Below are positions 23,128 through 49,029 of a DNA stretch of 64,000 nucleotides, in pieces. Location of the stretch: IMG/VR virus record IMGVR_UViG_3300031922_000090, positions 1 to 64,000 of that record. One strand, written 5' to 3'. Both the position numbers and the translations under genes were made by a program. Numbering within the stretch: position 1 is the first letter of the stretch; each line of letters begins with the position of its first letter. Below the pieces are notes generated by a model that saw nothing but the letters and a program-made list of their open reading frames with translations, was not told where the DNA came from and did no database searches. The DNA comes from a virus.

Positions 23128-23156
23128 AGGATACAGCTTCCCGAAGAAGTTGTCAA
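23128..23156 (-). promoter_or_regulatory. sigma70-type promoter TTGACA-N17-TATCCT with CTTC..GAAG spacer palindrome
   Basis: The minus strand reads TTGACAACTTCTTCGGGAAGCTGTATCCT with an A/T-rich upstream tract. 21-nt leader to ATG 23106. Confidence 0.6.
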
Positions 23157-23197
23157 CAGTTTTCTCCATGCCCGGTAAAAAATTTTCACGGCTCCGC

Positions 23198-23491
23198 TTA
23201 CACCGGGTACTTGAAGCCCTTCACGGTGGCGCGGCGGTAGATCATCGCTACCCGTTGCCCGCTAATGCCGATGAAACGTCCAATCTCCCGGTACGAAAAC
23301 CCGGCGTGCTTCCACTGGACGATACGCTCGTAGATCGCGTTCCGGTCCCCGTACCGTGCCACGCCATGACAGGCGATGCAACAGAAGACCCGCTCGTTTT
23401 CAGCAATGGTTTTTCGCCGGAACACCCGCTTACAAGCCGGGTTCCCGCAAACATGCGTATCCGGACGATCTTTGACAGAGATACCTGACAT
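23198..23491 (-). CDS. Zn-ribbon plus HTH (sigma region-4/LuxR-like) DNA-binding protein
   Basis: CGNPACKRV...CCIACH cysteine cluster, then FSYREIGRFIGISGQRVAMIYRRA HTH. Confidence 0.5.
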   Translation of the reverse strand: MSGISVKDRPDTHVCGNPACKRVFRRKTIAENERVFCCIACHGVARYGDRNAIYERIVQWKHAGFSYREIGRFIGISGQRVAMIYRRATVKGFKYPV

Positions 23492-23503
23492 TATTTCTCC
23501 TTT

Positions 23504-23884
23504 TTAGACTACAGGGCGCACTTTCTGCGGCTTAGTACGCCAGTCACAGGCGTTGAAGACTTGAAGCCGGTTAATGAGGAAGACAACGATATCTACCTCC
23601 TCCGAAGGCTTCAGGGTAACAACCGAAAGCGACTCCGGAAGGATCTCCAGAAACTTCGCCATTTCTTCGTCATCCTCCGGAAAAAGCTGCACAACGGCGT
23701 AGCCGGGTTCGACTAAACCGCAAAAAATACCCCGCTTACCCCTGTAAGCTTGGGACTCCGGCTCTGTACCGTAGAACGCACTGATTTCGACCACGGTTCC
23801 GGTTTCGATGATGCGCACACCTGGCTCACCGAAAGAACCTTCCGGATCAAAGCGGCGCATGACAGCCAAAATTGGATTAGACAC
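23504..23884 (-). CDS. hypothetical protein
   Basis: Start set at GTG 23884 (AAGGAGG SD 5 nt upstream). The longer ORF to 24034 has no SD. Confidence 0.4.
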   Translation of the reverse strand: MSNPILAVMRRFDPEGSFGEPGVRIIETGTVVEISAFYGTEPESQAYRGKRGIFCGLVEPGYAVVQLFPEDDEEMAKFLEILPESLSVVTLKPSEEVDIVVFLINRLQVFNACDWRTKPQKVRPVV

Positions 23885-24053
23885 TTGAACCTCCTTGAAA
23901 ATTCTGGGAGAGAGCCGACTTACCCTCTCTCCCTCCCGGCCCGCGCCGTAGCTTTCGGATCTATGGCTACTTGCTACGGCTTCACGGACCCGGCTTCGCG
24001 GCTTACCTCCTCCCGCTCCTCCTAGGAGGAGCAAGACGTATCCGCCCGGAACC

Positions 24054-24365
24054 CTAAAGAAATCGAACGTCCTTCAGGGAAATCGAAGTCGCAATCCTGT
24101 TTAACATCGACCACCCGAAATGAATCTCCTTCCCGGCCAGCGGTCCGAATTCGATAGGCTCGCCCTTCGGATCCACGAGAGCAAGTTCACCCTGTGCGAA
24201 CGCGACACCAAGTTTCCGCTTTTGCGTCTTCAGGATGAGAGCCAAAGAGTACCTCTCGGAATGCCCGCGATACTGCGGGTAAGCGCTCATTTGCGCTTCG
24301 GCCCGCGCCCGTAAAGAAGCGAGAAGGTCCGCTTTTTCCATTGCGCTGAAGTTGTGCTTTGTCAT
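24054..24365 (-). CDS. hypothetical protein, predicted leaderless mRNA
   Basis: 103-aa ORF. The ATG lies exactly 6 nt after the -10 of the promoter at 24372-24400. Confidence 0.5.
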   Translation of the reverse strand: MTKHNFSAMEKADLLASLRARAEAQMSAYPQYRGHSERYSLALILKTQKRKLGVAFAQGELALVDPKGEPIEFGPLAGKEIHFGWSMLNRIATSISLKDVRFL

Positions 24366-24371
24366 GACTCC

Positions 24372-24400
24372 AGTTTAGCGCTTCCTGAAGAAGCTGTCAA
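24372..24400 (-). promoter_or_regulatory. sigma70-type promoter TTGACA-N17-TAAACT with GCTTC..GAAGC spacer palindrome
   Basis: The minus strand reads TTGACAGCTTCTTCAGGAAGCGCTAAACT, then GGAGTC, then ATG. Confidence 0.6.
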
Positions 24401-24457
24401 TAATTCTTTCAACTTTTTTTACGGACAACGAGACAGTGCCGGAGATACTGGTCATTC

Positions 24458-24802
24458 CTATCGAGCATAACTTCGTACCCGCGCGATCTCCGGCAGATCG
24501 GCTCCAAGCTGAAAGGCTGCGCAGCGGGCATCCTCCGCTTGCTCATCCGAAAGCCATGCCGATAGATGGTTCATCGCCTCGGAACACAGCGCATGAACGC
24601 TATTCTGCATTGCCTTGTAGACAATTTCGGCCAGAAGGTTCATAACCGGATGCAGGCGCTCGGGGTGCGCCCGAAGCAGCCACCAGAGCCTCCACGCGGG
24701 ATGTGGGCAGGTAGCCCACGCCTCCGGCGCATAGCAACGGTGTGCCCAAGTCACCATCGACTCAGGAGCCCCGGCGTAGTGAAAGTAAGCTGCCAAACTC
24801 AT
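24458..24802 (-). CDS. hypothetical Trp-rich protein (weak paralog of 44036..44560)
   Basis: 114 aa. EAWATCPHPAWRLWWLL resembles SAWRECSRPDWMLGW in the 44-kb gene. Confidence 0.45.
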   Translation of the reverse strand: MSLAAYFHYAGAPESMVTWAHRCYAPEAWATCPHPAWRLWWLLRAHPERLHPVMNLLAEIVYKAMQNSVHALCSEAMNHLSAWLSDEQAEDARCAAFQLGADLPEIARVRSYAR

Positions 24803-24820
24803 GTTCCTGTCCTTTCCTGT

Positions 24821-25321
24821 TCAAAACGTCTTCTTCAAAAACTCGGTAGCTCCCTGCGCTCCGAAAACTTCTTCAATCTCGGCGTGCCACTCAGCGAGAG
24901 TCCAGTTGCCCGTCTGAAGAAAACGGACAGTGGCCGTATTCCGGAAAAACCAGCCATCGGCGGATTGCCCGACACAGGACGGACGGCCCGTAAGGCGGTT
25001 TGCCTCCGGTAAGGGATGCGTTTCTCCGGCCCGGCAAGCCTGAATCGCAACCCGGAGAAAGCGCTCCCAAGCTACGGCAGAAAACTTCCAGAACACTCCG
25101 GATTCTTCCACGTAAACAGGCAGAATCGAACGGGTTCCGATGCGGTTATCCCCGTCCATTCGTTTTTTCCGGTCGGCGGACTCGAACCCGGCTTGAATCC
25201 AATCATTCACCATCGCGTACTTCGGCAGTACCGCAATCTCGTCGAAGCGAAGGCCGCAACGGGAAGAACTGGAGCCCACGTTGTGCCAGTGGGTTTTGTT
25301 GGACATCAGCGTCGTTTTCAT
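24821..25321 (-). CDS. hypothetical protein
   Basis: 166-aa ORF with promoter 25340-25368 and a GAGGA SD. Confidence 0.5.
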   Translation of the reverse strand: MKTTLMSNKTHWHNVGSSSSRCGLRFDEIAVLPKYAMVNDWIQAGFESADRKKRMDGDNRIGTRSILPVYVEESGVFWKFSAVAWERFLRVAIQACRAGETHPLPEANRLTGRPSCVGQSADGWFFRNTATVRFLQTGNWTLAEWHAEIEEVFGAQGATEFLKKTF

Positions 25322-25339
25322 TTTCTCGTCCTCAATTAA

Positions 25340-25368
25340 AGAGTAGCAGTTCCGGAGGAAGTTGTCAA
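25340..25368 (-). promoter_or_regulatory. sigma70-type promoter TTGACA-N17-TACTCT with TTCC-TCC-GGAA spacer palindrome
   Basis: The minus strand reads AAACCTCTTGACAACTTCCTCCGGAACTGCTACTCT. 26 nt are identical to the promoter at 25861-25889. Confidence 0.6.
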
Positions 25369-25378
25369 GAGGTTTCTT

Positions 25379-25420
25379 AAAAAAATCGCGTCCCCCGAGG
25401 TGAGCGGGTTACCCCGCTCA
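25379..25420 (-). terminator. terminator-like hairpin plus T7 tract
   Basis: TGAGCGGG-GTAA-CCCGCTCA is an 8-bp stem right after the stop of 25426..25854. The T7 run is 15 nt further on, so spacing is atypical. Confidence 0.4.
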
Positions 25421-25425
25421 GCCTG

Positions 25426-25854
25426 CTACTTAACCTCCGTAATCGTGACGTTGCGGAAGCCTTTCGACACAATCTCGTCCCGAAACGCAATCGCAAGATC
25501 CAATCGAGACCTCCACCCATGGACCCGCCCCTGCCCGGTTTCCTCCTCCTTGGCATACGTCGCGGCAACAGTCTGGTAACACTTCTCGATTGCTTTGTGT
25601 ACCTCGGGAAAGCGCGCGGCCTCCATTTGATACCACTCCAACGATTCACCGTGGCTCGGAACCGGCAACGCTCCGGACGCGATGTCGGCATAGTACTCGT
25701 AGTTCTCTATTTTCCGGGCAAGCTCAAGCTGCCGACGCCTCTCCAGCGTGGCGGCTTCGATGCCCCTTGAAGTGATCACGTACTTGTACTCACGGCTCGT
25801 CCGGCGTGAGAAAGTGCCATTCGGCGTCGAAACGGTCAGTTTGATTGTCTTCAT
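25426..25854 (-). CDS. hypothetical protein, predicted leaderless mRNA
   Basis: Start at MKTIKLTV (ATG 25854), 6 nt after the -10 of promoter 25861-25889. The N-terminal extension in the ORF track runs through that promoter. Confidence 0.5.
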   Translation of the reverse strand: MKTIKLTVSTPNGTFSRRTSREYKYVITSRGIEAATLERRRQLELARKIENYEYYADIASGALPVPSHGESLEWYQMEAARFPEVHKAIEKCYQTVAATYAKEEETGQGRVHGWRSRLDLAIAFRDEIVSKGFRNVTITEVK

Positions 25855-25860
25855 GCGATC

Positions 25861-25889
25861 AGTGTACCTCTTCCGGAGGAAGTTGTCAA
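25861..25889 (-). promoter_or_regulatory. sigma70-type promoter TTGACA-N17-TACACT with CTTCC-TCC-GGAAG spacer palindrome
   Basis: The minus strand reads TTGACAACTTCCTCCGGAAGAGGTACACT, then GATCGC, then ATG. Confidence 0.6.
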
Positions 25890-26156
25890 GAGGTTTCCTA
25901 AGAAAATTTCGTCCCGTACCCGGCAGGTAAGCCGGGACGGGAGAAGAGGAGAGCGATACGGGAGAGGCGCTCAAGCGCGATGTCGAGGCAGGAAGCCAGT
26001 TCACCGTCAGCAACTTCCAGTGAAGAAACGTTGTTTTCCGGCTCCGGGAAGATCCGGAAAAAAGCAGTGTCGGCTTTGTGGACTGAGGGGCGGATGAGCA
26101 CAAAGAAAAAACGATACTGCTCACCGTCGGTTAGCTGGTAGGGTTTCCATGCTTCT

Positions 26157-26186
26157 AGTATCCTACGCTCCGGAGGAACTTGTAAA
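26157..26186 (-). promoter_or_regulatory. weaker member of the same promoter family (TTTACA-N18-GATACT)
   Basis: The minus strand reads TTTACAAGTTCCTCCGGAGCGTAGGATACT, then AGAAGC, then ATG. That ATG opens only 9 codons. Confidence 0.35.
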
Positions 26187-26192
26187 CTAGGT

Positions 26193-27128
26193 CTAACCTT
26201 GATCTTTGTAAACTTTCTGCCCCTGCTGGCGTCGAAATTCGGGGTGATCGCTACCCAGTTGCCTCCACTCCCCGAAGACTTCGCGGGCGGCTTCCTTGCG
26301 CCGCAAGGACAGCGTTGCAGCATAACCCTCCCCGGCAAGAATGCGGAGAGCGGCATCCTGAAAAATCTCTTCAGCGAGCGGTCCCGCGATTCCGGCCTGC
26401 TTGATGCGCTCCCGGAGGATGCCGGAATTTTTTTCAAGGTGCGCGGCCCCGCCCTGAAGGAAACCCTTACCGCAATCGAAGCAAAAACCCCGTCTTCCCC
26501 CGCCCTTCTTTACCCCGTCCGGCCTCCGTCCCGGCCCCCCGTTTTTGGTGTTCGTCCCGCCACACCGTCGGCAAACAAGCGCGAAATCAATCCGCTCCTT
26601 CTCTTTCTTTGGGTAAACCCAGGTTGAATTACAGTCCCTGCAACGGAACATCTGAGCTTTCCCGCGCGTGAAACCGGCGCGAATTATCCGGGTAGCCTCA
26701 GCGGGGCAGCGCGGACAGGCGTCCGGATACGGAATCCCCTCGTTTTTCCTCCAGCGTGGTGAAGCCGCTTCCCGCTCACGAAGAAAAATCTCCCGGCGAA
26801 CGTTACGGATTGCTGAGCGAAGAAGCGGGATTAGATCCTCCGTCACCCGAAGTTCCACAAACAAGTCTTGCTCCTCACGCCGGAGCACCTCAGTAGTACG
26901 GTCGGCGAAACGCTGGCGTGCGGCGCTTACCGTCGGCATCGGTTTCCGTGGAGCCGGAGGCTTCAGCGGGCGCTCTCCGTGCGGACGTAGAGCCCAAAGC
27001 GTCTTACGATGCGGGTTTTTCAGCGGGCGCTTCGGTTTCCTGGAGGTTAAGTTTGCTTCCCGGCGCGATGATGCGGCATATTTCTCCCGCATCTCCTGAC
27101 AGCGACGCTCGAAGGTTTCCCGGCGCAT
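26193..27128 (-). CDS. double Zn-ribbon, basic DNA-binding-like protein
   Basis: 311 aa. CPRCPAEATRIIRAGFTRGKAQMFRCRDCNSTW and CRRCGG...FCFDCGKGF. Very Arg/Lys-rich N-terminus. Confidence 0.5.
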   Translation of the reverse strand: MRRETFERRCQEMREKYAASSRREANLTSRKPKRPLKNPHRKTLWALRPHGERPLKPPAPRKPMPTVSAARQRFADRTTEVLRREEQDLFVELRVTEDLIPLLRSAIRNVRREIFLREREAASPRWRKNEGIPYPDACPRCPAEATRIIRAGFTRGKAQMFRCRDCNSTWVYPKKEKERIDFALVCRRCGGTNTKNGGPGRRPDGVKKGGGRRGFCFDCGKGFLQGGAAHLEKNSGILRERIKQAGIAGPLAEEIFQDAALRILAGEGYAATLSLRRKEAAREVFGEWRQLGSDHPEFRRQQGQKVYKDQG

Positions 27129-27593
27129 TTACGAAAACCGATGCAAAGAAACCGAAACCAGAGCTTCCCGGAACATCTCAAAGATGCGCTCCCGTATATC
27201 GTCCGTAAGCCACCCCGAACCAACATAGGCGTCCATAAAATCGCCATCGACGATAACGCGCGCGATTCCTGCTTGTACAATGAGTTTCGTACATTCGAGA
27301 CAGGGAGTCAACGACGTGTACAGGACGCATCCCGCAACAGGCGTACCAACACGCGCGGCGGCAACAATCGCGTTCGCCTCCGCATGGACAACCCGTTTTT
27401 GCTTTTCTCCCGGATTCCACCTTTCGGGCGGAGTATCCGGGATGCGGCGCGGGAACCCATTGTACCCGGTTGCCCGGATTTCCCGGTGTTCCGGTCCGAC
27501 AATTATTGCGCCTACCTGAGTATGCGGATCCTTAGAACGGACTGCGATCTCACGCGCGAGGTGTAGAAAATAAGTGTCCCAGTCAGGAACCAT
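27129..27593 (-). CDS. dCMP deaminase (cytidine/deoxycytidylate deaminase family)
   Basis: HAEANAI...TPCLECTKLI zinc-binding motifs (H-A-E, P-C-x2-C), 154 aa. Confidence 0.85.
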   Translation of the reverse strand: MVPDWDTYFLHLAREIAVRSKDPHTQVGAIIVGPEHREIRATGYNGFPRRIPDTPPERWNPGEKQKRVVHAEANAIVAAARVGTPVAGCVLYTSLTPCLECTKLIVQAGIARVIVDGDFMDAYVGSGWLTDDIRERIFEMFREALVSVSLHRFS

Positions 27594-27605
27594 AATTAAG
27601 TCTCC

Positions 27606-27944: not shown

Positions 27945-27953
27945 CTCTTCTAC

Positions 27954-27961
27954 GTTATACG
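27954..27961 (-). promoter_or_regulatory. CGTATAAC motif
   Basis: The minus strand reads ATCGTATAACGTAGAAGAG-ATG. Intergenic. Confidence 0.35.
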
Positions 27962-27969
27962 ATGCCCGG

Positions 27970-31684: not shown

Positions 31685-32095
31685 TTACCACTCCACTGTT
31701 CCGTTCCGGATACTGGCGATACCGAAGATACAGGCTATGGCGATGTCGGCAAGTTCCCGCTCAACGCATCCGAGATTATCCGCGCACACGGCAGCCACCA
31801 ATTCAGACCTCTCCTCCTCAACAGCCCCGAGAATCTCATGCCGGGAAGCAAAGGTTCCACGGCCTTTCTGATTAAGACGCCGCATCATGAGATTGTTCAA
31901 AATTTCGAAGGAGTCAGAGAGAGCTTTTTCCGTCACTGCTTTGCGCAAAGAAGACGGTAACTTATCGGTACTCCGCGATTCCCATATACCCTCAACAGCC
32001 CGAGCCTCATCCGAATTTATCGCACGCCAGCAGGAAGGGCACACTTCGCGCTCTGCATTAAACATCTGGTAACAGTAGATACAGGTTGTCATCAT
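31685..32095 (-). CDS. Zn-ribbon plus possible all-alpha NTP pyrophosphohydrolase (MazG-like) domain
   Basis: N-terminal CIYC...CPSC. C-terminal SRHEILGAVEEERSELVAAV...VERELADIAIACIF resembles small phage MazG-like NTP-PPases. By eye only. Confidence 0.35.
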   Translation of the reverse strand: MMTTCIYCYQMFNAEREVCPSCWRAINSDEARAVEGIWESRSTDKLPSSLRKAVTEKALSDSFEILNNLMMRRLNQKGRGTFASRHEILGAVEEERSELVAAVCADNLGCVERELADIAIACIFGIASIRNGTVEW

Positions 32096-32763
32096 GCTTT
32101 TCTCGCCCTCCGTTCCGCTTTGAAGACACCGAACGAGGTTGTCAGCACACGAGCTAGAGCAACAGTCATCCGGACATCGTTTAGCGCATCGTGGAGTTTT
32201 GCGTCCCCCGGCAAGGAGATCCCGAAAAACTTTGTGACGGCATCAAGCGTCAACCGCTTGGGACGGCGCAATTCAACCGGCGCGAGAGGATCTGCTACAG
32301 CTTTCGTCTCATGGAAGTAGAAATACCATTCGGCAAGCTGCTTAAGACACAGCGGGCGCGTATCAATCGGGATATAGATAGCTCGGCCAAATTTCCGAAG
32401 CGCGGTCATGGCGTCCATCAAAAAACCGATGTCAAAGTGCGCGTTGTAGGCAGCGCTCCGCGCGACGTAGTAAGGGTTCCCGGTTTTCTGAGACCATCTC
32501 CGGACGATATCCCCATCCTTTTTGACCCATGCGGCAAACCCGCCAAAGGCTTCCTCCGGAGGAAGCCCCTCCCGCTTCCATACTTCGCGGTCGTAGTGGT
32601 TCACAGCGAGAGCTTCCTGAGTTGCCTCCGACTCCTGAAACAGAAGTTTGACCTCGAAGGTATCGAGAATCTTCCACTCAACCGGCTTAACGCGGGCAGC
32701 GGCAAGTTGGATAATCGGCCTGCCCGGCTCAACCCCTCCGGTTTCCAGATCGAAAACAATCAT
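32092..32763 (-). CDS. DEDDh 3'-5' exonuclease (DnaQ/epsilon-like)
   Basis: Exo I MIVFDLETGG, Exo II AAYNAHFDIGFL, Exo III HDALNDVRMT. Confidence 0.8.
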   Translation of the reverse strand: MIVFDLETGGVEPGRPIIQLAAARVKPVEWKILDTFEVKLLFQESEATQEALAVNHYDREVWKREGLPPEEAFGGFAAWVKKDGDIVRRWSQKTGNPYYVARSAAYNAHFDIGFLMDAMTALRKFGRAIYIPIDTRPLCLKQLAEWYFYFHETKAVADPLAPVELRRPKRLTLDAVTKFFGISLPGDAKLHDALNDVRMTVALARVLTTSFGVFKAERRARKA

Positions 32764-33182
32764 GATTCCTGAAGCCTCCGTGCCTTGCGGTCGATTTTAG
32801 CCAGCAGTTCAAGCCTTGCGGCGTGGTTACGTTCCTTCTCCTCCCGCAATTTCTGAGCCTCGCATTGAAGATCGTTGAAATAAACCCAATCTTCGGCGAA
32901 CTCGGGAAGCTGGCGGACATTACCCGGGAGAGCGACATAGACATCGAGATCCCGGCCCGTCTTCGGGTTAACCCGAGGCTTCACGCGCTTCCGGATCCTT
33001 CCCTCGTCAATCAACATCTGGAGACACTTATCGGTAGAGTGAGAGACGATTCCGGTTTCCCGGACGATCTCAACCCGCGTCGCGCCGTGGTAGCCGATAT
33101 CGCGGATGAGACCGAACACCCGCTCCTTTTGGCTGTCCCGGAACGGAAGCCCCTTTTTCAGCGAAGCCCGGCGAGCATTCAT
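32760..33182 (-). CDS. winged-helix DNA-binding protein
   Basis: FGLIRDIGYHGATRVEIVRETGIVSHSTDKCLQMLIDEGRIRKRV is a MarR/wHTH-like layout. Confidence 0.45.
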   Translation of the reverse strand: MNARRASLKKGLPFRDSQKERVFGLIRDIGYHGATRVEIVRETGIVSHSTDKCLQMLIDEGRIRKRVKPRVNPKTGRDLDVYVALPGNVRQLPEFAEDWVYFNDLQCEAQKLREEKERNHAARLELLAKIDRKARRLQES

Positions 33183-33806: not shown

Positions 33807-34412
33807 TCAGACGGCAACGTGTTGCACACTATCGACGCGAAAACGCCCGAACATCCCGCGTTTCTCAACGCGGAATGAACCGAGCCCGATTGAGAAACCG
33901 GCCTGCTGGAAGTGCTGAATCAATTCGTCCAGCGTGACGAACTCCGGCACGAAATCAACGACAAAGGACATCGACCACTGGTCAAAGCGCGGCCTTGGAA
34001 CGCCGATAGCCTGTCCTTTGGCATTGACGGCACAGCGCACGTCCCGCGTCGGCGGATTCGGCGCTTCGATCACGACGTACTCTTCCGGAAAAACCAGCGT
34101 TCCAGTCAGCTTCTTTCCCATGCCCTTCTTCGCCCCGAACGTGATCGCGGCAGAGATCAGGGCGCGGAACATACCAACAGTCGGGAAGAGGAAACGCTTA
34201 CCCTCCATCCGGACCTTCTCCTCCCATCTCACCAGCGCATCTTTCTTCGTTCCGAGTCCTTCCGCTTTCCGGTTCAAGGACTCGATGATTCGGGGCGGCA
34301 TGGCGTTACACAGCAAGGGAGAGATCCCCGCTATGGTGATACAGACGCGCCGTGAAACGATGGGGTCAATCGTAACCACATCTTTCTCGGCGTTGACGGC
34401 TTTCTTCGGCAT
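33807..34412 (-). CDS. hypothetical protein; possible RAMP-like/RNA-binding fold (unverified)
   Basis: Start at MPKKAVNAEK (ATG 34412, AAGAAAGG SD). Features RVCITIAGISPLLCN, FLFPTVGMFRALISAA and a C-terminal glycine-rich GLGSFRVEKRGMFGRFRV. It is the first gene after the tandem RNA cassettes. Confidence 0.5.
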   Translation of the reverse strand: MPKKAVNAEKDVVTIDPIVSRRVCITIAGISPLLCNAMPPRIIESLNRKAEGLGTKKDALVRWEEKVRMEGKRFLFPTVGMFRALISAAITFGAKKGMGKKLTGTLVFPEEYVVIEAPNPPTRDVRCAVNAKGQAIGVPRPRFDQWSMSFVVDFVPEFVTLDELIQHFQQAGFSIGLGSFRVEKRGMFGRFRVDSVQHVAV

Positions 34413-34516
34413 AAATCTACCTTTCTTGGGAATACTGCGGGAGCCCGGAGGCTCCCGCCATTGCGTTGATTTGCTGTGCAAAGCGACGCGGGGCGAAGCA
34501 TTACACTAACACCACC

Positions 34517-34545
34517 AGCATAGCTCATCTGGAGGAGGAAGTCAA
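34517..34545 (-). promoter_or_regulatory. cassette promoter P1 (TTGACT-N17-TATGCT), drives the leader and CDS 33807..34412
   Basis: The minus strand reads TTGACTTCCTCCTCCAGATGAGCTATGCT. The ~100-nt leader contains hairpin GCGGGAGCC-TCCG-GGCTCCCGC (34437-34458) with no U tract. Confidence 0.55.
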
Positions 34546-34548
34546 CAG

Positions 34549-34583
34549 AAAAAAATGATGCCGGAATCCCGAAGGATTCCGGC
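34549..34583 (-). terminator. intrinsic terminator T1
   Basis: GCCGGAATCC-TTCG-GGATTCCGGC 10-bp stem, then ATCATTTTTTT. Confidence 0.8.
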
Positions 34584-34640
34584 CATTGATTTACTTTACT
34601 CCACAAAGCAATACAGCGCGATACGAGGCATAATCTCAAC
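34549..34640 (-). ncRNA. predicted small RNA 3 (~92 nt), promoter P2 to terminator T1
   Basis: Approximate transcript GGUGGUGUUGAGAUUAUGCCUCGUAUCGCGCUGUAUUGCUUUGUGGAGUAAAGUAAAUCAAUG plus hairpin and U7. Only an 11-codon ATG ORF. Ends are inferred, not measured. Confidence 0.45.
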
Positions 34641-34646
34641 ACCACC

Positions 34647-34675
34647 AGCATAGCTCATCTGGAGGAGGAAGTCAA
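34647..34675 (-). promoter_or_regulatory. cassette promoter P2 (TTGACT-N17-TATGCT)
   Basis: Identical to P1 and lies within the 85-nt repeat. Confidence 0.55.
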
Positions 34676-34678
34676 CAG

Positions 34679-34713
34679 AAAAAAATGATGCCGGAATCCC
34701 GAAGGATTCCGGC
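34679..34713 (-). terminator. intrinsic terminator T2
   Basis: Identical hairpin and U7 tract to T1. Confidence 0.8.
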
Positions 34714-34775
34714 CATTGATTTGAGATGCTGTGCTTCACATTACTACGCCGCACACCACTTTGTCCAACACCAAC
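34679..34775 (-). ncRNA. predicted small RNA 2 (~97 nt), promoter P3 to terminator T2
   Basis: Approximate transcript GAAGAUGUUGGUGUUGGACAAAGUGGUGUGCGGCGUAGUAAUGUGAAGCACAGCAUCUCAAAUCAAUG plus hairpin and U7. The 5' AGAUGUUG can pair with CAGCAUCU. Only a 13-codon ORF. Confidence 0.45.
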
Positions 34776-34781
34776 ATCTTC

Positions 34782-34810
34782 AGCATACCTCATCTGGAAG
34801 AGGAAGTCAA
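34782..34810 (-). promoter_or_regulatory. cassette promoter P3 (TTGACT-N17-TATGCT)
   Basis: The minus strand reads TTGACTTCCTCTTCCAGATGAGGTATGCT. Confidence 0.55.
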
Positions 34811-34813
34811 CAG

Positions 34814-34847
34814 AAAAAATGATGCCGGAGCCCCAGGTGACTCCGGC
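34814..34847 (-). terminator. intrinsic terminator T3
   Basis: GCCGGAGTCACC-TGGGGCTCCGGC hairpin (GCCGGAG/CTCCGGC arms), then ATCATTTTTT. Confidence 0.7.
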
Positions 34848-34914
34848 TATCAGATTACTTTAATGCGCCAAATAGGGAGGCAGGTTACCCTACTGTACGT
34901 GACGGCGCATTAAC
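34814..34914 (-). ncRNA. predicted small RNA 1 (~100 nt), promoter P4 to terminator T3
   Basis: Approximate transcript GAAGGUGUUAAUGCGCCGUCACGUACAGUAGGGUAACCUGCCUCCCUAUUUGGCGCAUUAAAGUAAUCUGAUA plus hairpin and U6. Perfect 10-bp internal stem UUAAUGCGCC/GGCGCAUUAA. Confidence 0.45.
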
Positions 34915-34920
34915 ACCTTC

Positions 34921-34949
34921 AGGATAACCCACCACACCCTGAACGTCAA
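34921..34949 (-). promoter_or_regulatory. cassette promoter P4 (TTGACG-N17-TATCCT)
   Basis: The minus strand reads TTGACGTTCAGGGTGTGGTGGGTTATCCT and starts 9 nt after the DNA methylase stop. Confidence 0.5.
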
Positions 34950-34957
34950 GAACTTTT

Positions 34958-35974
34958 TCAGGAAGAACTCGGAGCCAACGCTTCTTCAAGATCCGCGTAC
35001 CGCGAAAAATGCTCCAGACGTTTGAGTGCAATGGCAACGTAGCCCGGCTCCCGCTCGATGCCCGTAACCCGCTCCCACCCGGCAAACCGCGCTCCGATCA
35101 TCTCGGAGCCACTCCCGGCGAACGGCACCAGCAGGCGTCCACCCGTGGGAGGCAGGATCAACTTTGCGAGGTACTGGGTCAGATAAAGCGGCTTCACAGT
35201 CGGATGGTCGTTATACTCACAGCGGTCCTTTCGAGCTTTCCCACAGTAGAAAAATCTGGAAGAACCCGGAGCTTGAGCCTCCAGCATCTCAACCGGCTCG
35301 CCAGCTTCGAACAGGACGTTAACGGGATAGCGCCCTTCGGTAATCCGCGTACCGTCAATGTTCAAGCCACCCGTCCCGTACTGAACAACGTTATCGCACA
35401 CCGGGCCGGTTACAGGTTTCCGCGCGAGAATGATCGGCTCCCATCCCGGCCTCAGAGTCGTGTTGTAGCCGTCCCACAGCGCAGCCTCGGGAGATCCCGG
35501 CAACGTCTTCAGGCGGTTACTTCCAGAAAAATCACCCTCGTAGCCGATGGAGTTGTGATCGTGCGCGGCATAATTCCGCTCCCGAGGTTCGGCTCCGGGC
35601 GGACAATACTGTGCCCCGGTCTCCCGGACGATACCTTTCTTCCGGTCGATGAGCTTACCGAGATCCTGTCCCTTCGGAAAACCATTTCCGTACAGCCACA
35701 TCAGGCAGTCAACAATCTCAAACCCTCCGGCTTCAATCGCCACGGCTAGATGATGGAAGGTCCGCGTGCCCCCGAACGCCAGCAACGGCGCTCCCGGCTT
35801 CAAGACCCGGCAAACCTCGGCCCAAACAACGGCGGACGGAACCCCATGGTCCCATTCCCGCCCGAGAAATTTCAGCCCGTAGGGCGGATCCGTAAGCACG
35901 GCGTGGTACTGTTCCGGCTTCTTCCGCTTGAGAACAGCAAGCACGTCGCCGGTCTCAAGTAAAATCCCCGCCAT
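34958..35974 (-). CDS. DNA N4/N6 methyltransferase (ParB-less, beta-class order)
   Basis: VLTDPPYGL catalytic motif near the N-terminus and LLVPFAGSGSEMIGA SAM-binding motif near the C-terminus. 338 aa. Confidence 0.85.
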   Translation of the reverse strand: MAGILLETGDVLAVLKRKKPEQYHAVLTDPPYGLKFLGREWDHGVPSAVVWAEVCRVLKPGAPLLAFGGTRTFHHLAVAIEAGGFEIVDCLMWLYGNGFPKGQDLGKLIDRKKGIVRETGAQYCPPGAEPRERNYAAHDHNSIGYEGDFSGSNRLKTLPGSPEAALWDGYNTTLRPGWEPIILARKPVTGPVCDNVVQYGTGGLNIDGTRITEGRYPVNVLFEAGEPVEMLEAQAPGSSRFFYCGKARKDRCEYNDHPTVKPLYLTQYLAKLILPPTGGRLLVPFAGSGSEMIGARFAGWERVTGIEREPGYVAIALKRLEHFSRYADLEEALAPSSS

Positions 35975-40115: not shown

Positions 40116-40204
40116 GAAGTAGCGGTAGCCTTCCTCCGACTTATTCCGGAGGAAGTCGGGGGAAGATCCTTAAGAGAGACAATCTTCAATGGGCACATTG
40201 CCTG

Positions 40205-42644: not shown

Positions 42645-42664
42645 ACGCCAGCGCAAATCGAAGG

Positions 42665-43018
42665 TCAGTCATCCTCTCCCAACACGAACCGGCCATGACT
42701 GTCTCGGTAGGACATGCCCCCGGCGTAGCGGGAGCCACCCTCACGGCGCTCGATGCTGCAATCGCGGCAGTAACGGTAGCCGGAGCGAACGGCGTCTCCG
42801 CAATCGGGGCAGGTTCCAGACCCGGACCCAGTACCGGACGCGGGAATAATCGAACAAAGCGCGATCTTCCCATCCGTCCACACCACGCGGTCGATGCGCT
42901 CGTTCTTGGCCTCGCCCGAACGCTTCACGACATTGACGGTCTGCCCCGGACGCACTGTGCCCGTAACGCGCACGCCCCAGTCGCCAGAGCGGAGTTTCGT
43001 GTAGGTTGCTGTCTCCAT
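42665..43018 (-). CDS. Zn-ribbon protein, predicted leaderless mRNA
   Basis: CPDCGDAVRSGYRYCRDC. The ATG lies 6 nt after the -10 of promoter 43025-43053. Confidence 0.5.
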   Translation of the reverse strand: METATYTKLRSGDWGVRVTGTVRPGQTVNVVKRSGEAKNERIDRVVWTDGKIALCSIIPASGTGSGSGTCPDCGDAVRSGYRYCRDCSIERREGGSRYAGGMSYRDSHGRFVLGEDD

Positions 43019-43024
43019 GCTTTA

Positions 43025-43053
43025 AGAATAGCGCATCGTGAGGAACCTGTCAA
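43025..43053 (-). promoter_or_regulatory. sigma70-type promoter TTGACA-N17-TATTCT
   Basis: The minus strand reads AAAAAAATTTTTTGAACTTTTCTATTGACAGGTTCCTCACGATGCGCTATTCT, then TAAAGC, then ATG. The spacer motif is degenerate (GTTCCTC). Confidence 0.55.
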
Positions 43054-43075
43054 TAGAAAAGTTCAAAAAATTTTT

Positions 43076-43309: not shown

Positions 43310-43316
43310 AATTACC

Positions 43317-44838: not shown

Positions 44839-44861
44839 GGTTGCCTCTTCCTAAACCTCGA

Positions 44862-45245
44862 CTAGTAAATTGCGGAGCAACTTCTCCGCACAGTCCGAAC
44901 CTGATGGGCAACAGAGCCACGGAGATGCTTCTCTCCGGCAATCTGAGCCCGGACAGCCTCATCTGTCCATAGCTGGCGTTCGATGCCGTTACGGTACAAA
45001 TTCCGGCCCTTGCGCCGCGTCTCCACCCCGGCAACGAGCGGTTGCACCCCACTGGACTCAACCACGCGAAACGTAAAAGTATGCTGTTGCTTACCTGCTC
45101 CGTAGCTCTCCCGGAGAATTTCGGCAACGATAGTCCGGTTACCGGCATACTTCGGTGAACGGAAGGATCCGGAAAAAACCGCTTCCGTAAAGCGCACGAC
45201 GTCGCCTCTAACCACATCGCCAGTTGCGTCTGTCCACTCAATCAT
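44862..45245 (-). CDS. hypothetical protein
   Basis: 127-aa ORF with a GGAGG SD, preceded by a long G/C-rich imperfect hairpin. Confidence 0.45.
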   Translation of the reverse strand: MIEWTDATGDVVRGDVVRFTEAVFSGSFRSPKYAGNRTIVAEILRESYGAGKQQHTFTFRVVESSGVQPLVAGVETRRKGRNLYRNGIERQLWTDEAVRAQIAGEKHLRGSVAHQVRTVRRSCSAIY

Positions 45246-45332
45246 AATGCCTCCAAATTGACGGAGGAAGGGGGAAACCCTCCCCCTCCTTCAGATCGCG
45301 GTCACCCGCGTAAGAACAGTCTCCCTACGTCC

Positions 45333-45340
45333 GTTATACG
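45333..45340 (-). promoter_or_regulatory. CGTATAAC motif
   Basis: The minus strand reads TTCGTATAACGGACGTAGGGAG, in the 250-nt low-coding gap 45246-45498. Confidence 0.3.
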
Positions 45341-45385
45341 AATCGTGCTTCTTCACCGTCCCCTTCAATTTGTAGCTCTGTCCGG

Positions 45386-45490
45386 TCACCAGATCAGAGC
45401 GGTCGCCGGAAGCAAGCCAGTCCGGCGCACGATCTCGCAAACCTCCTGGAGATCCGCAATGGCATCTTCGATGAGTTTAGTTACGTGCAT
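45386..45490 (-). CDS. possible 34-aa small protein (below the track cutoff)
   Basis: Hand-translated MHVTKLIEDAIADLQEVCEIVRRTGLLPATALIW. Strong GTAGGAGG SD 5 nt upstream of the ATG. Confidence 0.3.
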   Translation of the reverse strand: MHVTKLIEDAIADLQEVCEIVRRTGLLPATALIW

Positions 45491-45498
45491 AGAGCCTC

Positions 45499-45864
45499 CT
45501 ACAAACTCCGGATTATCCCGGCAAGATTCTGCCCCACTGGCAGCCCGTGGATTTCTCGCACAACGGTCTTCGTCAGAGCCCGGAAGTAGGCGATTGGATC
45601 ACGCTCGAAAAACCGGAGAAAAGCCTCCCGCTCCTCCGGCACCATGGCCTGAAGCTTGAGCGTCTCGACCTCGAGAATACGCTGTGCGATAGCAGCGCAC
45701 ACGTCCCGTGCCAGTTCAGAACGCGCAACGGTTAGCTCATCAATCGGCGGCTTCACCTGTGCAAGCAGCCCCGGCCCTCCCATAGACATGAAAAAATCCT
45801 CAACTTCTTCCTTATACTGCTCGCGGGCAGCCTGAAAACGAGCGGTCGCGCCTGTCAAGTCCAT
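45499..45864 (-). CDS. hypothetical protein
   Basis: 121-aa ORF. Confidence 0.45.
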   Translation of the reverse strand: MDLTGATARFQAAREQYKEEVEDFFMSMGGPGLLAQVKPPIDELTVARSELARDVCAAIAQRILEVETLKLQAMVPEEREAFLRFFERDPIAYFRALTKTVVREIHGLPVGQNLAGIIRSL

Positions 45865-45892
45865 AGTCTTCTCTCCTTAATTATGCGAAAAA

Positions 45893-46222
45893 TCAGTCCC
45901 AGTAACGCCCACCGAATATAGCCGGTTTAACACCAGCGGAGCGGTCGAGGTACTCCCGGCGATAACTGGGACATCCCGGAATAAAGATACCCTCATAATG
46001 CGGTAGGGTAAAAAGCCCAAGCAGCTTCCCTAGGGCTACCCGCTCGTCAACATTCATCCTGTGAGTAGCGTTCCGGGCGGTAATCTTGATCCACCCATAA
46101 GCAGTACCCCGCCCTCCAGTAACGGACCAACGGATGCCGATGCCCTGCTCGGCGGAACGCCGCTTGAGATTGTCGTGAATCGTCTGAATCACGGCATTAC
46201 GGTCATAAATTGGGTCACTCAT
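45893..46222 (-). CDS. hypothetical protein, predicted leaderless mRNA
   Basis: 109-aa ORF. The ATG lies 6 nt after the -10 of promoter 46229-46257. Confidence 0.5.
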   Translation of the reverse strand: MSDPIYDRNAVIQTIHDNLKRRSAEQGIGIRWSVTGGRGTAYGWIKITARNATHRMNVDERVALGKLLGLFTLPHYEGIFIPGCPSYRREYLDRSAGVKPAIFGGRYWD

Positions 46223-46228
46223 GCTATC

Positions 46229-46257
46229 AGTTTAAGTCTTCCGGAGGAACTTGTCAA
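46229..46257 (-). promoter_or_regulatory. sigma70-type promoter TTGACA-N17-TAAACT with TTCC-TCC-GGAA spacer palindrome
   Basis: The minus strand reads TTGACAAGTTCCTCCGGAAGACTTAAACT, then GATAGC, then ATG. Confidence 0.6.
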
Positions 46258-46275
46258 GCGCTATCTTCATTTTCT

Positions 46276-46309
46276 AAAAAAAAAATAGCGGCTCCCCCGA
46301 AGGGGAGCC
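46276..46309 (-). terminator. intrinsic terminator
   Basis: GGCTCCCC-TTCG-GGGGAGCC 8-bp stem, then GCTA plus T10. Lies after 46336..46866. Confidence 0.8.
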
Positions 46310-46335
46310 ACCTTTCACCGTGCAAACAACGGTCG

Positions 46336-46866
46336 TCAGACCTTCGGGAAAACTTTCATTTGCACCATACCGGGCGCGGTCCGCTCAACGCGAAACTGCC
46401 CGGAAAATTCCCCACGCCGGATAATGTACTGGAGCATCCGAGCGGGATCCGCTACCCGGACGGGCGCACCATTCGATGTCGTCAAGCCACCGAACAGGGT
46501 CATGAGATCGAATTCCTGCCCCGTCATGAGACGGTCGAAAGCAAGCGCGAAAACCGAGTCCGAACGGAAAATCGGCTTCTTCGGCGGAGCATCGGGAAGG
46601 ATCCCGAGAGGTATCTCCTGTTTGGCTTCCTCCGGAACCGGGCACACCTCCCGCTCCTTTGCCTTCTTCGCGGCGAGCTTCTTAATCAATGGGCTGTAAG
46701 GCTTCCTCATGCCGATCTTCTGTTTAGCCGGAGCATCCGGCTTAAGTTTCGTTGGCGCGGTAGGCTTCTTTGCCTTGGCGTTCGTGGGCTTCGCAGCTTT
46801 CGGTTTTACCACCGGAGCGGAAGCGGGCACGGATGCCTTCACCTCCGGTTTCGTTGTCTCGATCAT
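46336..46866 (-). CDS. Lys/Ala/Pro-rich (histone-H1-like tail) protein with a globular C-terminal domain
   Basis: Start at MIETTKPEV (AAGGAG SD). KPKAAKPTNAKAKKPTAPTKLKPDAPAK low-complexity region. Confidence 0.5.
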   Translation of the reverse strand: MIETTKPEVKASVPASAPVVKPKAAKPTNAKAKKPTAPTKLKPDAPAKQKIGMRKPYSPLIKKLAAKKAKEREVCPVPEEAKQEIPLGILPDAPPKKPIFRSDSVFALAFDRLMTGQEFDLMTLFGGLTTSNGAPVRVADPARMLQYIIRRGEFSGQFRVERTAPGMVQMKVFPKV

Positions 46867-46928
46867 AATTGCTCCTTTCAAAATTCAACTTAGGGGGAGC
46901 GGGAGAACACCTACCACTCCCCAAAAAA

Positions 46929-47894
46929 TTAGCGCGTCCACTGGAAATCAATCCACCCGTTCCGGAACTTACTCAGCCTCCACTGTCCCGTTGCGGCTCC
47001 TTTCGCAGCGATGAAACTAACCATGCGCGTGACATCGGCGGCAGCAACTCTCCTCCGGATCTCATCAATGTGGATTGTGCCCTCACAACCGGCGATCAAT
47101 TCGAAGATCTCGGCCATCTTCCCGCGATACCAGATATTCTTGACAGCGGCAGGCTTCGCCTCTTCCCGGTTAACCGGGACAGCAGGCTTCACGGTCGCGC
47201 CGAGACTATCAACGAATCGAACCATGAGACGGGCACCCTTCACAGACGCCTCGGCCATCTTTGCAGCATCGAAGATGAACCCGCCTTTAGCGTCTCTGGA
47301 GATCGACGCCGCTTTCAACACCAGCGGGAAAATCTCACCCATGACTACCGCGAAAATCCCGGACTCATCCCGGAGCTTCAGCAGATCGTCACAATACTCC
47401 GTCGAAAAAACAATGTTCCCGTCTCCGTCAAACTGGCGAGCTTTGGCAGCCCCCGCCCGCACCTTAAAAGTGAGCCCAAGTTCACCACCGTAGGCACGGC
47501 TCAGCGCATCCAAAATAGGGGCATACTTGACGCGGAGCTTCGCGTCCTTCGCCTCCAGTTCAGCCTTACGCTCCGCGTATAGCTGGTAGTACATATCGAT
47601 GGATACCGAACTGCCGACACCGAATCGAGCCATGATGCGAGCAAACAAACGAAGCGTCATCAGAAGCGCTGTCTCAGCCTCCGGTTTCGGAGTCCCGGCC
47701 CCGAAGCCGAGATTCTTCGTGGAAAGCGATTTCTGAAACTTCGCTTCCTCATCCGGAGTAAACTGGAGACGATGAGACGGAATGAGCATCTCATACCACA
47801 CCACGGCTTTCTTCAGAGCGGTAATGCGGGCGTCAACATCCAAATCGATGACGCCTGAAAAAATCGCGCGAAGATCCTTCTCCTGTTTGGTCAT
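46929..47894 (-). CDS. hypothetical protein
   Basis: 321-aa ORF downstream of the vWA gene. Confidence 0.5.
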   Translation of the reverse strand: MTKQEKDLRAIFSGVIDLDVDARITALKKAVVWYEMLIPSHRLQFTPDEEAKFQKSLSTKNLGFGAGTPKPEAETALLMTLRLFARIMARFGVGSSVSIDMYYQLYAERKAELEAKDAKLRVKYAPILDALSRAYGGELGLTFKVRAGAAKARQFDGDGNIVFSTEYCDDLLKLRDESGIFAVVMGEIFPLVLKAASISRDAKGGFIFDAAKMAEASVKGARLMVRFVDSLGATVKPAVPVNREEAKPAAVKNIWYRGKMAEIFELIAGCEGTIHIDEIRRRVAAADVTRMVSFIAAKGAATGQWRLSKFRNGWIDFQWTR

Positions 47895-47938
47895 GACGGC
47901 TCCTTAATTTTATCCTCTTCCTGAATAAATTGCAAGCC

Positions 47939-48949
47939 CTACTTGATCCGTTTTTGCGGCGCGTTCAGGAGCAACGGACGGCGAGACGACTCAACGAATT
48001 TCTGCCGGAAAACACGCGCGGAGTCGACGCGCGTGTAGGTTCCACCCGTAGCCTCGCACGCTTCCTTCAACTTATCCCAGGAATTCGCGTCCTCTACGAG
48101 TTCATTCGGCGAAAGGACGTGAATGAAATCAAGGACGATTCTTGCGTCGAGCAGCCTCGGCACCAAACGAAGAACGTATGCGGCTCCGTGGTCGAGAGCA
48201 TCCGAAACGAAAACAACCTGATTTGCTCCAACAGGAGACGGGTTGCTCTCAACAATCTTGATGACGGCCTCAAGCGCGGCGGTAATGTTCGTATCCCACC
48301 CAGGAGCGGAAAGCCGAGCGATCTGCCTCTTCAAATCGGCAATGCCGCAAGGTTTCCGGTAACGAGGCTCTGTGTCGAACTCCACAATGTGCAGATCGGC
48401 TCCCGGATTCTTCGCAAACCTCTCTTGCACCATCTCACCGAGGTACTGCTGTACGGCCTCGATTTTCGAGAGTCCCAGATAACCCTCAAAATGCTTGATG
48501 CCGAGCTCCTTCACGAGCTCTTGAGCAACAGCCTCGGCTTTCAGCAGTTCATCGTTCGCGTTCTGAAGACGCACCCACAGCAGATCATTTTCGATGTTCT
48601 CTTTGGAAATCTGGTGTGGTACGGTAGCATGGAACGCCGAAAGATCCTCACCATCTTCCGAGATGAAAGCACCCAAGGTGCGCGCTTGCATCGCTGCCAC
48701 CCGGACAGTAGCGTTCTCAATGCGGCGGCGCATGAGTGCAATGTTGGCCGGAGAAAAATCGTAGCTCTCCACGTCCCCCACTGCGAGCAGACGGGATGTC
48801 ATCGAATTCGAGGTATCGATAACATAGATGAGCTTTTTCCCACGGTCGTACACGACCTCAAGCATCTGCTCGGGCGCGGCGGTTACGTTGAATTCATCGT
48901 CCGTCGTAGCGTCGGACGGCTTCTTCCCGAAATTGTCAAGGTCTAACAT
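47939..48949 (-). CDS. von Willebrand factor A (vWA) domain protein
   Basis: MIDAS-type LIYVIDTSNSM (DxSxS). 336 aa. GGAAGGAG SD. Confidence 0.6.
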   Translation of the reverse strand: MLDLDNFGKKPSDATTDDEFNVTAAPEQMLEVVYDRGKKLIYVIDTSNSMTSRLLAVGDVESYDFSPANIALMRRRIENATVRVAAMQARTLGAFISEDGEDLSAFHATVPHQISKENIENDLLWVRLQNANDELLKAEAVAQELVKELGIKHFEGYLGLSKIEAVQQYLGEMVQERFAKNPGADLHIVEFDTEPRYRKPCGIADLKRQIARLSAPGWDTNITAALEAVIKIVESNPSPVGANQVVFVSDALDHGAAYVLRLVPRLLDARIVLDFIHVLSPNELVEDANSWDKLKEACEATGGTYTRVDSARVFRQKFVESSRRPLLLNAPQKRIK

Positions 48950-49000
48950 ATGGCTCCTTCCAGAGATTGAAGAGGGGCAGGAAACCCACCCGCCATCTCA

Positions 49001-49029
49001 ACGATAGCAATTCCGGAGGAAGAATGCAA
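49001..49029 (-). promoter_or_regulatory. promoter-family member TTGCAT-N17-TATCGT with TTCC-TCC-GGAA spacer palindrome
   Basis: The minus strand reads TTGCATTCTTCCTCCGGAATTGCTATCGT. ~50-nt leader to ATG 48949. Confidence 0.45.

Follow-up and report, generated by a model that had tools for sequence, protein, structure and literature searches.

We analysed a 64,000-nt stretch of viral DNA (positions 1 to 64,000 of IMG/VR record IMGVR_UViG_3300031922_000090, hereafter the window), which comprises most of the genome of a novel tailed phage transcribed nearly entirely from the minus strand, and found in it a family of promoters that carry a conserved element inside the spacer between their -35 and -10 boxes. 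Judged by their sequences, these promoters almost certainly form one family, with 13 members in the window and two more about 4 kb past its end, on L018, a Logan contig that reaches 4.9 kb past window position 64000. The element, hereafter the core, occupies a fixed position in 12 of the 15 promoters. The unit conserved across phages is asymmetric, YTCCTC(C/A)-N-GA, and lies at about -27 to -18; comparison with related phages gives good support to the view that selection acts on it. The analysis also brought out leaderless starts (as predicted from the position of the ATG), a terminator-promoter layout and a homologous family in five related phages, none of which had been part of the original prediction made on this DNA.

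The exact pattern TTGACA-N17-TANNNT matches six sites on the minus strand (23128-23156, 24372-24400, 25340-25368, 25861-25889, 43025-43053 and 46229-46257), where 0.12 are expected, and none of 100 shuffles reached six, which confirms the enrichment of the motif over a shuffled background. All eight minus-strand sites listed in the original prediction are present at the coordinates given; besides these six, the site at 49001-49029 reads TTGCAT-N17-TATCGT and that at 26157-26186 reads TTTACA-N18-GATACT. Looser scans added these two (49029 with TTGCAT; 26186 with TTTACA and an 18-nt spacer), 47935 (TTGCAA), the tandem TTGACT copies at 34810, 34675 and 34545, and 34949, which lacks the core. Over the 13 window sites the -35 box has at most two mismatches to TTGACA in every case and at most one in 11, and the spacers measure 17-18 bp. 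A pattern derived from the relatives, TTG-N6-TCCTC-N2-GA-N6-A-N3-T, gave seven matches in the window, all on the minus strand, against 0.00 expected. Every family site of the window is intergenic, on the minus (coding) strand and directly upstream of open reading frames (ORFs) or short non-coding units, as follows.

49001..49046, minus strand: promoter P49029, AGTACTAAAGTACTA-TTGCAT-tcTTCCTCCGGAAttgc-TATCGT, upstream of the VWA-domain gene 47939..48949, with a 51-nt leader containing a Shine-Dalgarno (SD) sequence
47907..47935, minus strand: promoter P47935, TTGCAA-tttaTTCAGGAAGagga-TAAAAT, with gene 46929..47894 downstream; the core is weak and shifted
46287..46312, minus strand: intrinsic terminator, an 11-bp stem followed by T10, immediately upstream of P46257
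46229..46257, minus strand: promoter P46257, TTGACA-agTTCCTCCGGAAGact-TAAACT; gene 45893..46222 has its ATG 6 nt past the -10 box (predicted leaderless)
43025..43053, minus strand: promoter P43053, TTGACA-ggTTCCTCACGATGcgc-TATTCT, without a dyad; gene 42665..43018 has its ATG 6 nt past the -10 box (predicted leaderless)
34921..34949, minus strand: promoter P34949, TTGACG-N17-TATCCT without the spacer core, before a predicted structured RNA of about 100 nt that extends to the terminator 34824-34847
34517..34810, minus strand: three tandem promoters, TTGACT-tCCTCCTCCAGATGagc-TATGCT, at 34517-34545, 34647-34675 and 34782-34810
34810, 34675 and 34545, minus strand: starts of the -35 boxes of these tandem copies, with terminators 34690-34713 and 34560-34583 between them; the copies at 34810 and 34675 precede predicted non-coding transcripts of about 90 nt, the copy at 34545 precedes gene 33807..34412
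26157..26186, minus strand: promoter P26186, TTTACA-agTTCCTCCGGAGcgtag-GATACT, whose 18-nt spacer contains a perfect CTCCGGAG
25861..25889, minus strand: promoter P25889, TTGACA-aCTTCCTCCGGAAGagg-TACACT; gene 25426..25854 has its ATG 6 nt past the -10 box (predicted leaderless)
25340..25368, minus strand: promoter P25368, TTGACA-aCTTCCTCCGGAACtgc-TACTCT, with an 18-nt leader carrying an SD sequence (GAGGA) before gene 24821..25321
24372..24400, minus strand: promoter P24400, TTGACA-gCTTCTTCAGGAAGcgc-TAAACT; gene 24054..24365, which has a homologue in the relative L013, has its ATG 6 nt past the -10 box (predicted leaderless)
23128..23156, minus strand: promoter P23156, TTGACA-aCTTCTTCGGGAAGctg-TATCCT, with an SD-bearing leader before gene 22849..23106

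The spacers of these promoters are not random, as had been proposed. With one duplicate copy removed, spacer positions 3-14 contain 1.26 bits per position, a value comparable to that of the -35 box (1.44) and set against 0.90 for the -10 box, while the upstream flank, the ends of the spacer and the stretch from the -10 box to the ATG contain 0.30-0.56. Six positions (T4, C5, T7, C8, G11 and A12) are invariant in the 18 promoters of the window and L013 sets combined. In the window phage the core often reads TTCCTCCGGAA, an 11-mer with seven minus-strand copies where an order-4 Markov model predicts 0.39. Outside promoters it is found at 9238, 37245 and 40144 (minus) and 46627 (plus); three minus-strand copies against 0.39 expected for the whole strand is a marginal excess given the CCGG bias of this DNA. 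In the literature, nothing but unrelated papers on eukaryotes turned up for the 11-mer, and the accession of the sample is mentioned in no paper. The prediction had taken the conserved unit to be a palindrome, TTCC-N3-GGAA or CTTCC/GGAAG. TTCC-N3-GGAA is indeed enriched in the window (10 copies against 2.05 expected), but TCCGGA is present in only five family sites and the full dyad in only four, the remaining sites either having CTTC/GAAG arms or, like 43053 and the 34.5-kb copies, lacking a dyad. In the combined set, the information at right-arm positions 13 and 14 falls to 0.5 and 0.2 bits. The palindromic look of the window promoters probably stems in large part from a G at position 10, which creates TCCGGA. 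Symmetric operators of the lambda, 434 or LexA type have a conserved dyad; here the relatives lose it or carry a different one. The dyad is specific to the window phage.

To gather these relatives we used homologues of TerL and VWA together with DNA patterns. A homologous promoter family is present in five uncultured phages related to this one (identity 60-65% for TerL where measured, 39-45% for VWA); in it the order is GTACT-N3-GTACTA, TTGnnn, N17, nAnnnT, N6 and ATG, and four of the five keep the core; among window members, the upstream GTACT repeats are kept only at P49029. The phage represented by L013, L102 and L103 (TerL 65% identical) has 11 family promoters, with spacers such as TCCTCCTCCTGAAAGCC and TCCTCCTCACGATCCCA: TCCTC stands at spacer positions 4-8 in all of them and GA at positions 11-12 in 10, while GGAA or TCCGGA is found in none. 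A relative that has no TCCGGA anywhere in its compared DNA reads TCCTCCTGA. In L104, which is syntenic with window positions 45.5-49.7 kb, both promoters read TCCTCCTCCTGA and contain TCCTC. The subclade of L017/L198 and L199 has the spacer (A)CTCCGGAG(T), whose centre of symmetry lies elsewhere than that of the window dyad; TCCGGA occupies spacer positions 7-12, as in the window, in four of the five L017/L198 promoters, and in L198_8174 and L199_2014, the orthologues of P47935, CTCCGGAG is displaced by 3 nt towards the -10 box. The promoter of the VWA gene could be aligned across four phages (window P49029, L198, L199 and L104), and AGTACTATTG, TCCTCC and GA are invariant in it. The VWA proteins of these phages are 39-45% identical, a distance at which neutral DNA is randomised, so that conservation of the promoter counts for selection. 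Since the core is kept in orthologous promoters beside proteins that have diverged this far, something selects for it, and a selected core makes coordinated regulation plausible. Of the co-regulated operator set originally proposed, the single family and a plausible coordination are supported, whereas the symmetric dimer operator is only one option and not the best supported. No family was found in any of 80 IMG/VR loci recovered with a TerL profile, nor in L099 and L101 (TerL 61-62% identical), which confines it to a small clade; a search of IMG/VR with the promoter-plus-spacer pattern gave no match.

Seven of the 15 promoters (46257, 43053, 25889, 24400, 26186 and both on L018) have an ATG exactly 6 nt past the -10 box, and so do, with a C at -1, 8 of the 11 sites in L013/L102/L103. 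As the A of this ATG is the predicted +1, the geometry implies that the mRNAs would be leaderless. No SD sequence precedes these predicted leaderless starts; ordinary SD-bearing leaders are found at the remaining members. Genes called independently start at such ATGs on L018 (771), L013 (83, 2483, 2905 and 6663), L017 (57) and L015 (4531 and 9575); the helicase gene of L018, for instance, was called at exactly the ATG that the family predicts. At P26186 the ATG opens an ORF of only nine codons, followed by about 250 nt of non-coding DNA. Several promoters are immediately preceded by a strong intrinsic terminator, for example at 46287-46312 and, three times, at 34.5-34.85 kb. The A/T-rich upstream tract of P46257 is the T-run of terminator 46287..46312, and because the T-run of the upstream terminator forms part of that tract, the units can be described as terminator-promoter cassettes.

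The two promoters on L018 form a divergent pair (341-771, about 4.2-4.6 kb past position 64000) that resembles a genetic switch. The leftward one, at position 666, is upstream of a predicted leaderless gene for a 96-amino-acid orphan. It is a paralogue of P43053, with which it shares about 40 nt, including non-functional positions; the variant CCTCACGAT of P43053 also occurs in the relative promoter L013_2870. The rightward one, TTTACA-actagCCTGATCAGGgt-TACACT, precedes the helicase gene, predicted to have no leader, and has the spacer palindrome CCTGATCAGG. In L103 the equivalent place has a perfect spacer palindrome, CCTCATGAGG.

Two further regions are predicted to yield structured RNAs. 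At 34410-34950 (minus), four units stand in tandem; the first three would give structured non-coding transcripts of about 90-100 nt, each with a 5' hairpin and a terminator hairpin around mutually different bodies, and the Logan assembly of the window phage breaks at this repeat. Downstream of P26186, 25895-26150 (minus) is predicted to form a highly structured non-coding RNA (minimum free energy -85 kcal/mol) that runs as far as the following promoter. Scanning the window for Rfam families and tRNAs found nothing, and a search for small-RNA targets within the phage revealed no significant complementarity.

Taken together, we infer that these are lineage-specific strong promoters read by the host housekeeping sigma factor (sigma-70/SigA type) and scattered over the accessory, early part of the genome that is transcribed in one direction. 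In each cassette a terminator T-run or A/T tract (GTACT-N3-GTACTA in the relatives and P49029) would lead into TTGACA or TTGCAT, a 17-bp spacer, TAnnCT, 6 nt and, in about half of the units, an ATG whose A would serve as +1. The element YTCCTC(C/A)-N-GA, locked in position by presumed purifying selection, would be where a factor acting in trans docks, one that reads these promoters as a class and switches them jointly. Near-consensus promoters need no activator, so the most likely role of such a factor would be the shut-off or timing of early transcription, and, the conserved part being asymmetric, it need not be a symmetric dimer. We give this reading as a whole (housekeeping-type cassette promoters, many of them leaderless, with a recognition site for a class-controlling factor in the spacer) about an even chance of being right.

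Several observations weigh against it. None of the roughly 60 proteins scanned against Pfam, most of them encoded at 21-50 kb, where nearly all ORFs are orphans, could be tied to the motif. L015 keeps the GTACYA-TTG upstream module and the leaderless geometry with no conserved spacer, so that the core is dispensable in at least one lineage. Copies within one phage are more alike than copies between phages, and duplication or gene conversion therefore inflates conservation within a genome; consistent with duplication, an unrelated IMG/VR phage (L144) has multi-copy promoter cassettes whose spacers are common to the copies. A fixed position, finally, would be equally expected of an element contacted by RNA polymerase itself. 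As to L144 itself (IMGVR_UViG_3300038314_000906), its region 4800-11800 (minus) contains more than 10 TTGACA-N16/17-TATAAT promoters in whole repeated cassettes, mostly with an ATG within 6-7 nt (predicted leaderless); it is 46% GC and shares no protein homology with the window.

Contact with RNA polymerase is the basis of an alternative that we consider rather unlikely, namely that the TCCTCC tract and the GA set the conformation of the spacer or touch the host holoenzyme, giving strong or supercoiling-sensitive promoters with no separate factor. The core is asymmetric and strictly fixed relative to both hexamers in 12 family promoters and 13 in relatives; its invariant GA falls at -19/-18, and residue R451 of sigma-70 senses the spacer near -18 in E. 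coli (PMC3130263); in T4 early promoters the consensus extends beyond the hexamers to further regions that are thought to optimise contact with RNA polymerase (PMC2988021); and of the six matches of the exact promoter-plus-spacer pattern in cellular genomes, the four in Oscillospirales precede strongly expressed stable-RNA or T-box units. However, the motif is missing from other strong promoters of those host loci, L015 manages without it, and the pattern is rare (six matches in 185,579 genomes, with 1-2 expected by our own rough estimate). To our knowledge, no known basal element has the sequence of the core or spans -27 to -21, which counts further against an intrinsic element. We find about equally improbable a reading in which YTCCTCC-N-GA (-27 to -18) would be an undescribed element, read by the host holoenzyme or by a new small phage factor bound to RNA polymerase, that marks leaderless early units as a class and allows the phage to switch all of them at once, its TCCGGA/TCCTGA variant at position 10 tracking the restriction landscape of the host. 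The symmetric operator of the original prediction (TTCC-N3-GGAA, or better CTCCGGAR centred on CC|GG), at which a dimeric phage or host repressor would block RNA polymerase, is no likelier in our estimate. A location between the two promoter boxes is classic for an operator; CTCCGGAG or ACTCCGGAGT recurs in L017, L198, L199 and window P26186; perfect 10-bp spacer palindromes mark the divergent switch-like regions of L018 (CCTGATCAGG) and L103 (CCTCATGAGG); and dyad arms of at least 4 bp are found in 17 of 27 spacers, with 6-9 expected from shuffles. The promoter copies being paralogous, these shuffle statistics overstate the significance of the dyads, and the arms differ among promoters (TTCC/GGAA, CTCC/GGAG, GCTTC/GAAGC, CCTC/GAGG, CCTGA/TCAGG and CCTCA/TGAGG, with loops of 0-8 nt), which is not the pattern expected from one dimer with fixed half-site spacing; the excess would thus argue weakly for any single symmetric operator. 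Moreover, neither GGAA nor TCCGGA is found in any of the 11 promoters of L013/L102/L103 or the two of L104, while all 13 keep TCCTC and 12 of them keep GA; the 43053 and 34.5-kb types have no dyad, centres vary as arms and loops do, positions 13-14 are weak, and no repressor-like protein was identified, the candidates first put forward being not conserved in the relative DNA compared.

Two further explanations appear far less probable still. Were the core a functionless relic of recent promoter duplication within the genome, one would expect the long identities that do exist: 25368 and 25889 share the 26 nt already noted in the original prediction (AAACCTCTTGACAACTTCCTCCGGAA, present twice), 34675 is identical to 34545, 43053 and its L018 paralogue share about 40 nt, and L144 shows cassette duplication. 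Yet the flanks and spacer ends have diverged (0.3-0.56 bits) and the core has not (1.26 bits), and its survival in orthologous promoters beside proteins 39-45% identical disfavours a relic. It is just as doubtful that TCCGGA acts as a methylation or restriction site, with spacer methylation tuning the promoters and the same system causing the genome-wide excess. TCCGGA is over-represented 6.4-fold in the window (108 copies) and 17-fold in L017 (78 copies in 14.5 kb), being the most over-represented palindromic hexamer of both, and is absent from L013, L102, L103 and L104; spacer position 10 holds G in genomes that tolerate TCCGGA and T in those that lack it; and the phage encodes an N6/N4 DNA methylase (34958..35974). 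But the excess covers CCGG-containing words generally (CCGG itself is 2.4-fold over-represented in the window), and since the remainder of the core persists in relatives that lack TCCGGA, the hexamer itself is not needed. An antisense SD sequence with a mini-ORF and an RNA hairpin in read-through transcripts were also considered, and no supporting evidence was found for either.

The binders proposed with the palindrome remain pure inference. The product of 23198..23491 gave sub-threshold matches to Sigma70_r4, HTH_38 and helix-turn-helix entries of PHROG; its predicted model is all-helical and of low confidence, and the best matches in a fold search were helix-turn-helix domains, none of them significant. 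The product of 26193..27128 had weak zinc-ribbon matches only, and that of 32760..33182 had no family match, a low-confidence predicted model and no confident fold. For all three, the relative DNA compared contains no homologue. A sigma-like gene (17639..18223, minus strand) lies between the TerL and portal genes, with weak matches to Sigma70_r2 and to PHROG sigma entries. It is kept at that position in all relatives examined, including those without the promoter family, and is thus unlikely to read the family promoters; moreover, their hexamers are those of the housekeeping consensus and the geometry of extracytoplasmic function-type -35 and -10 boxes does not fit, and we rejected the possibility that they are promoters for this protein.

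Among known systems, the closest analogue is the class of phage early promoters whose consensus reaches beyond the hexamers, such as those of T4. Like the early promoters of T4, T5 and T7 A1 type, the family has many early copies, near-consensus boxes at 17 bp and an A/T-rich upstream tract, and, like those of T4, it has extra conserved positions that define a phage-specific class (PMC2988021). In contrast to them, it has no TGn extended -10 box, the further conserved positions form a GC-rich pyrimidine block at mid-spacer, about half of its units are predicted to be leaderless, and no Alt-like modifier was recognised. As in T4 middle promoters, which use a MotA box and sigma appropriation, a phage-specific element lies upstream of a host-type -10 box, and TTGCTT/TTGCAT of the relatives resembles TGCTT of the MotA box. 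The centre of that box, however, is at -30, leaving about 12 bp to the -10 box (PMC2988021). The family hexamer is at the true -35 position, 17 bp away, and reads TTGACA in the window; a MotA-type middle promoter was rejected on these grounds, and the Pfam scans gave no match to the MotA or AsiA families. Operators of the MerR type, too, are dyad-like and lie between the two promoter boxes, in an over-long spacer of 19-20 bp that the regulator untwists; the family spacer is an optimal 17 bp (18 at P26186), and this candidate was rejected as well.

Leaderless units with a TANNNT -10 box 6-7 nt before the start codon occur in Thermus phage P23-45, actinobacteriophages, Deinococcus and actinobacterial genes. 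The family resembles them in that an ATG, the predicted +1, follows its -10 box after 6 nt, with no SD sequence, and in that this arrangement recurs across a phage lineage. It differs from the middle and late promoters of P23-45, which have no -35 box, and we know of no leaderless system described with a conserved spacer element such as this. The conserved inverted repeats of phiC31 and the stoperators of mycobacteriophage L5 belong to multi-site phage repressor systems; in the window, too, a short motif recurs at a dozen or more sites, mostly in one orientation, which would imply control by a single factor. Unlike in these systems, no cognate repressor was found, and the motif is locked in the spacer with few copies outside promoters.

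A search for the motif in cellular DNA gave a weak lead to a host. Besides the six genome matches, a metagenome scan returned five, mostly at the same loci. Four of the six (Oscillospirales L001, L004, L005 and L006) are TTGACA-WW-TTCCTCCGGAA-N4-TAnnAT promoters directly upstream of tRNA-Leu(TAG), tRNA-Leu(GAG), the T-box leader of leuC and the T-box leader of pheS; neighbouring promoters in these loci lack the motif. They may belong to a host regulon or be coincidental, and we do not rely on them. The relatives of the phage bear names from unrelated phyla. With so few matches, and nearby promoters without the motif, a host-wide promoter feature was not upheld.

The oligonucleotide composition of the window is itself unusual. 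Its 64 kb are entirely devoid of at least ten palindromic hexamers, among them GGGCCC, CTGCAG, CAGCTG and CGGCCG, which points to putative restriction avoidance, and CTAG is present at 0.13 times its expected frequency. The richness in CCGG and TCCGGA raises the background of TTCCTCCGGAA but does not explain its fixed position inside promoters. A drive for TCCGGA of the very-short-patch-repair type was rejected, the deamination neighbours TCTGGA and TCCAGA being not depleted in the window. At 40130-40165 (minus), CTTCCTCCG-gaataagt-CGGAGGAAG forms a predicted 9-bp hairpin that would sequester the SD-like GGAGGAAG, and gene 32092..32763 contains a perfect 16-nt palindrome, CTTCCTCCGGAGGAAG (32550-32565, minus).

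The genome around the family is arranged in three blocks.

0.1-20 kb: structural genes (TerL, portal, HK97-type capsid, tape measure)
21-50 kb: small genes, mostly orphan
50-64 kb: replication genes (PolA with a UDG domain, SbcCD-like, RecA-like, clamp-loader-like, primase/helicase, 5'-3' exonuclease)

Among the proteins scanned from the middle block, the only functions recognised are two methyltransferases, an RNase T-like exonuclease, a dCMP deaminase, a MazG-like protein, a PDDEXK nuclease and the VWA protein. PolA with its N-terminal UDG-superfamily domain (57203-59968), the dCMP deaminase (27129-27593), the MazG-like pyrophosphohydrolase (21142-21717) and ThyX (about 19.8-20.7 kb) could together signal modified or unusual DNA bases. 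Megablast against GenBank phages found no close DNA relative of this phage, and its TerL and PolA are less than 60% identical to those of known phages. Among 5.8 billion proteins searched, the nearest relatives are about 61% (capsid) and 65% (TerL) identical; the capsid protein is recorded from a 77.6-kb contig. Searches of IMG/VR proteins with two early window proteins, one by one, gave no match, and exact-protein look-ups were without success for three of the window ORFs tried.

Very strong portable promoters can be drawn from the early promoters of phages, as can factors that retarget the host RNA polymerase, and the family described here offers a compact cassette of terminator, consensus promoter and ATG at the predicted +1. 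Its main points of interest are this systematic, predicted leaderless design and a spacer element that appears to be held by selection across phages whose proteins are about 40-65% identical. Should the element prove to have little effect, the family would still be a clean natural set for studying leaderless expression. If it is instead a site for factor binding or polymerase contact, it would represent a testable form of class-specific control exerted through the spacer, a region usually deemed neutral in sequence, and would offer a way to learn how a dozen independent leaderless units are coordinated by a phage.

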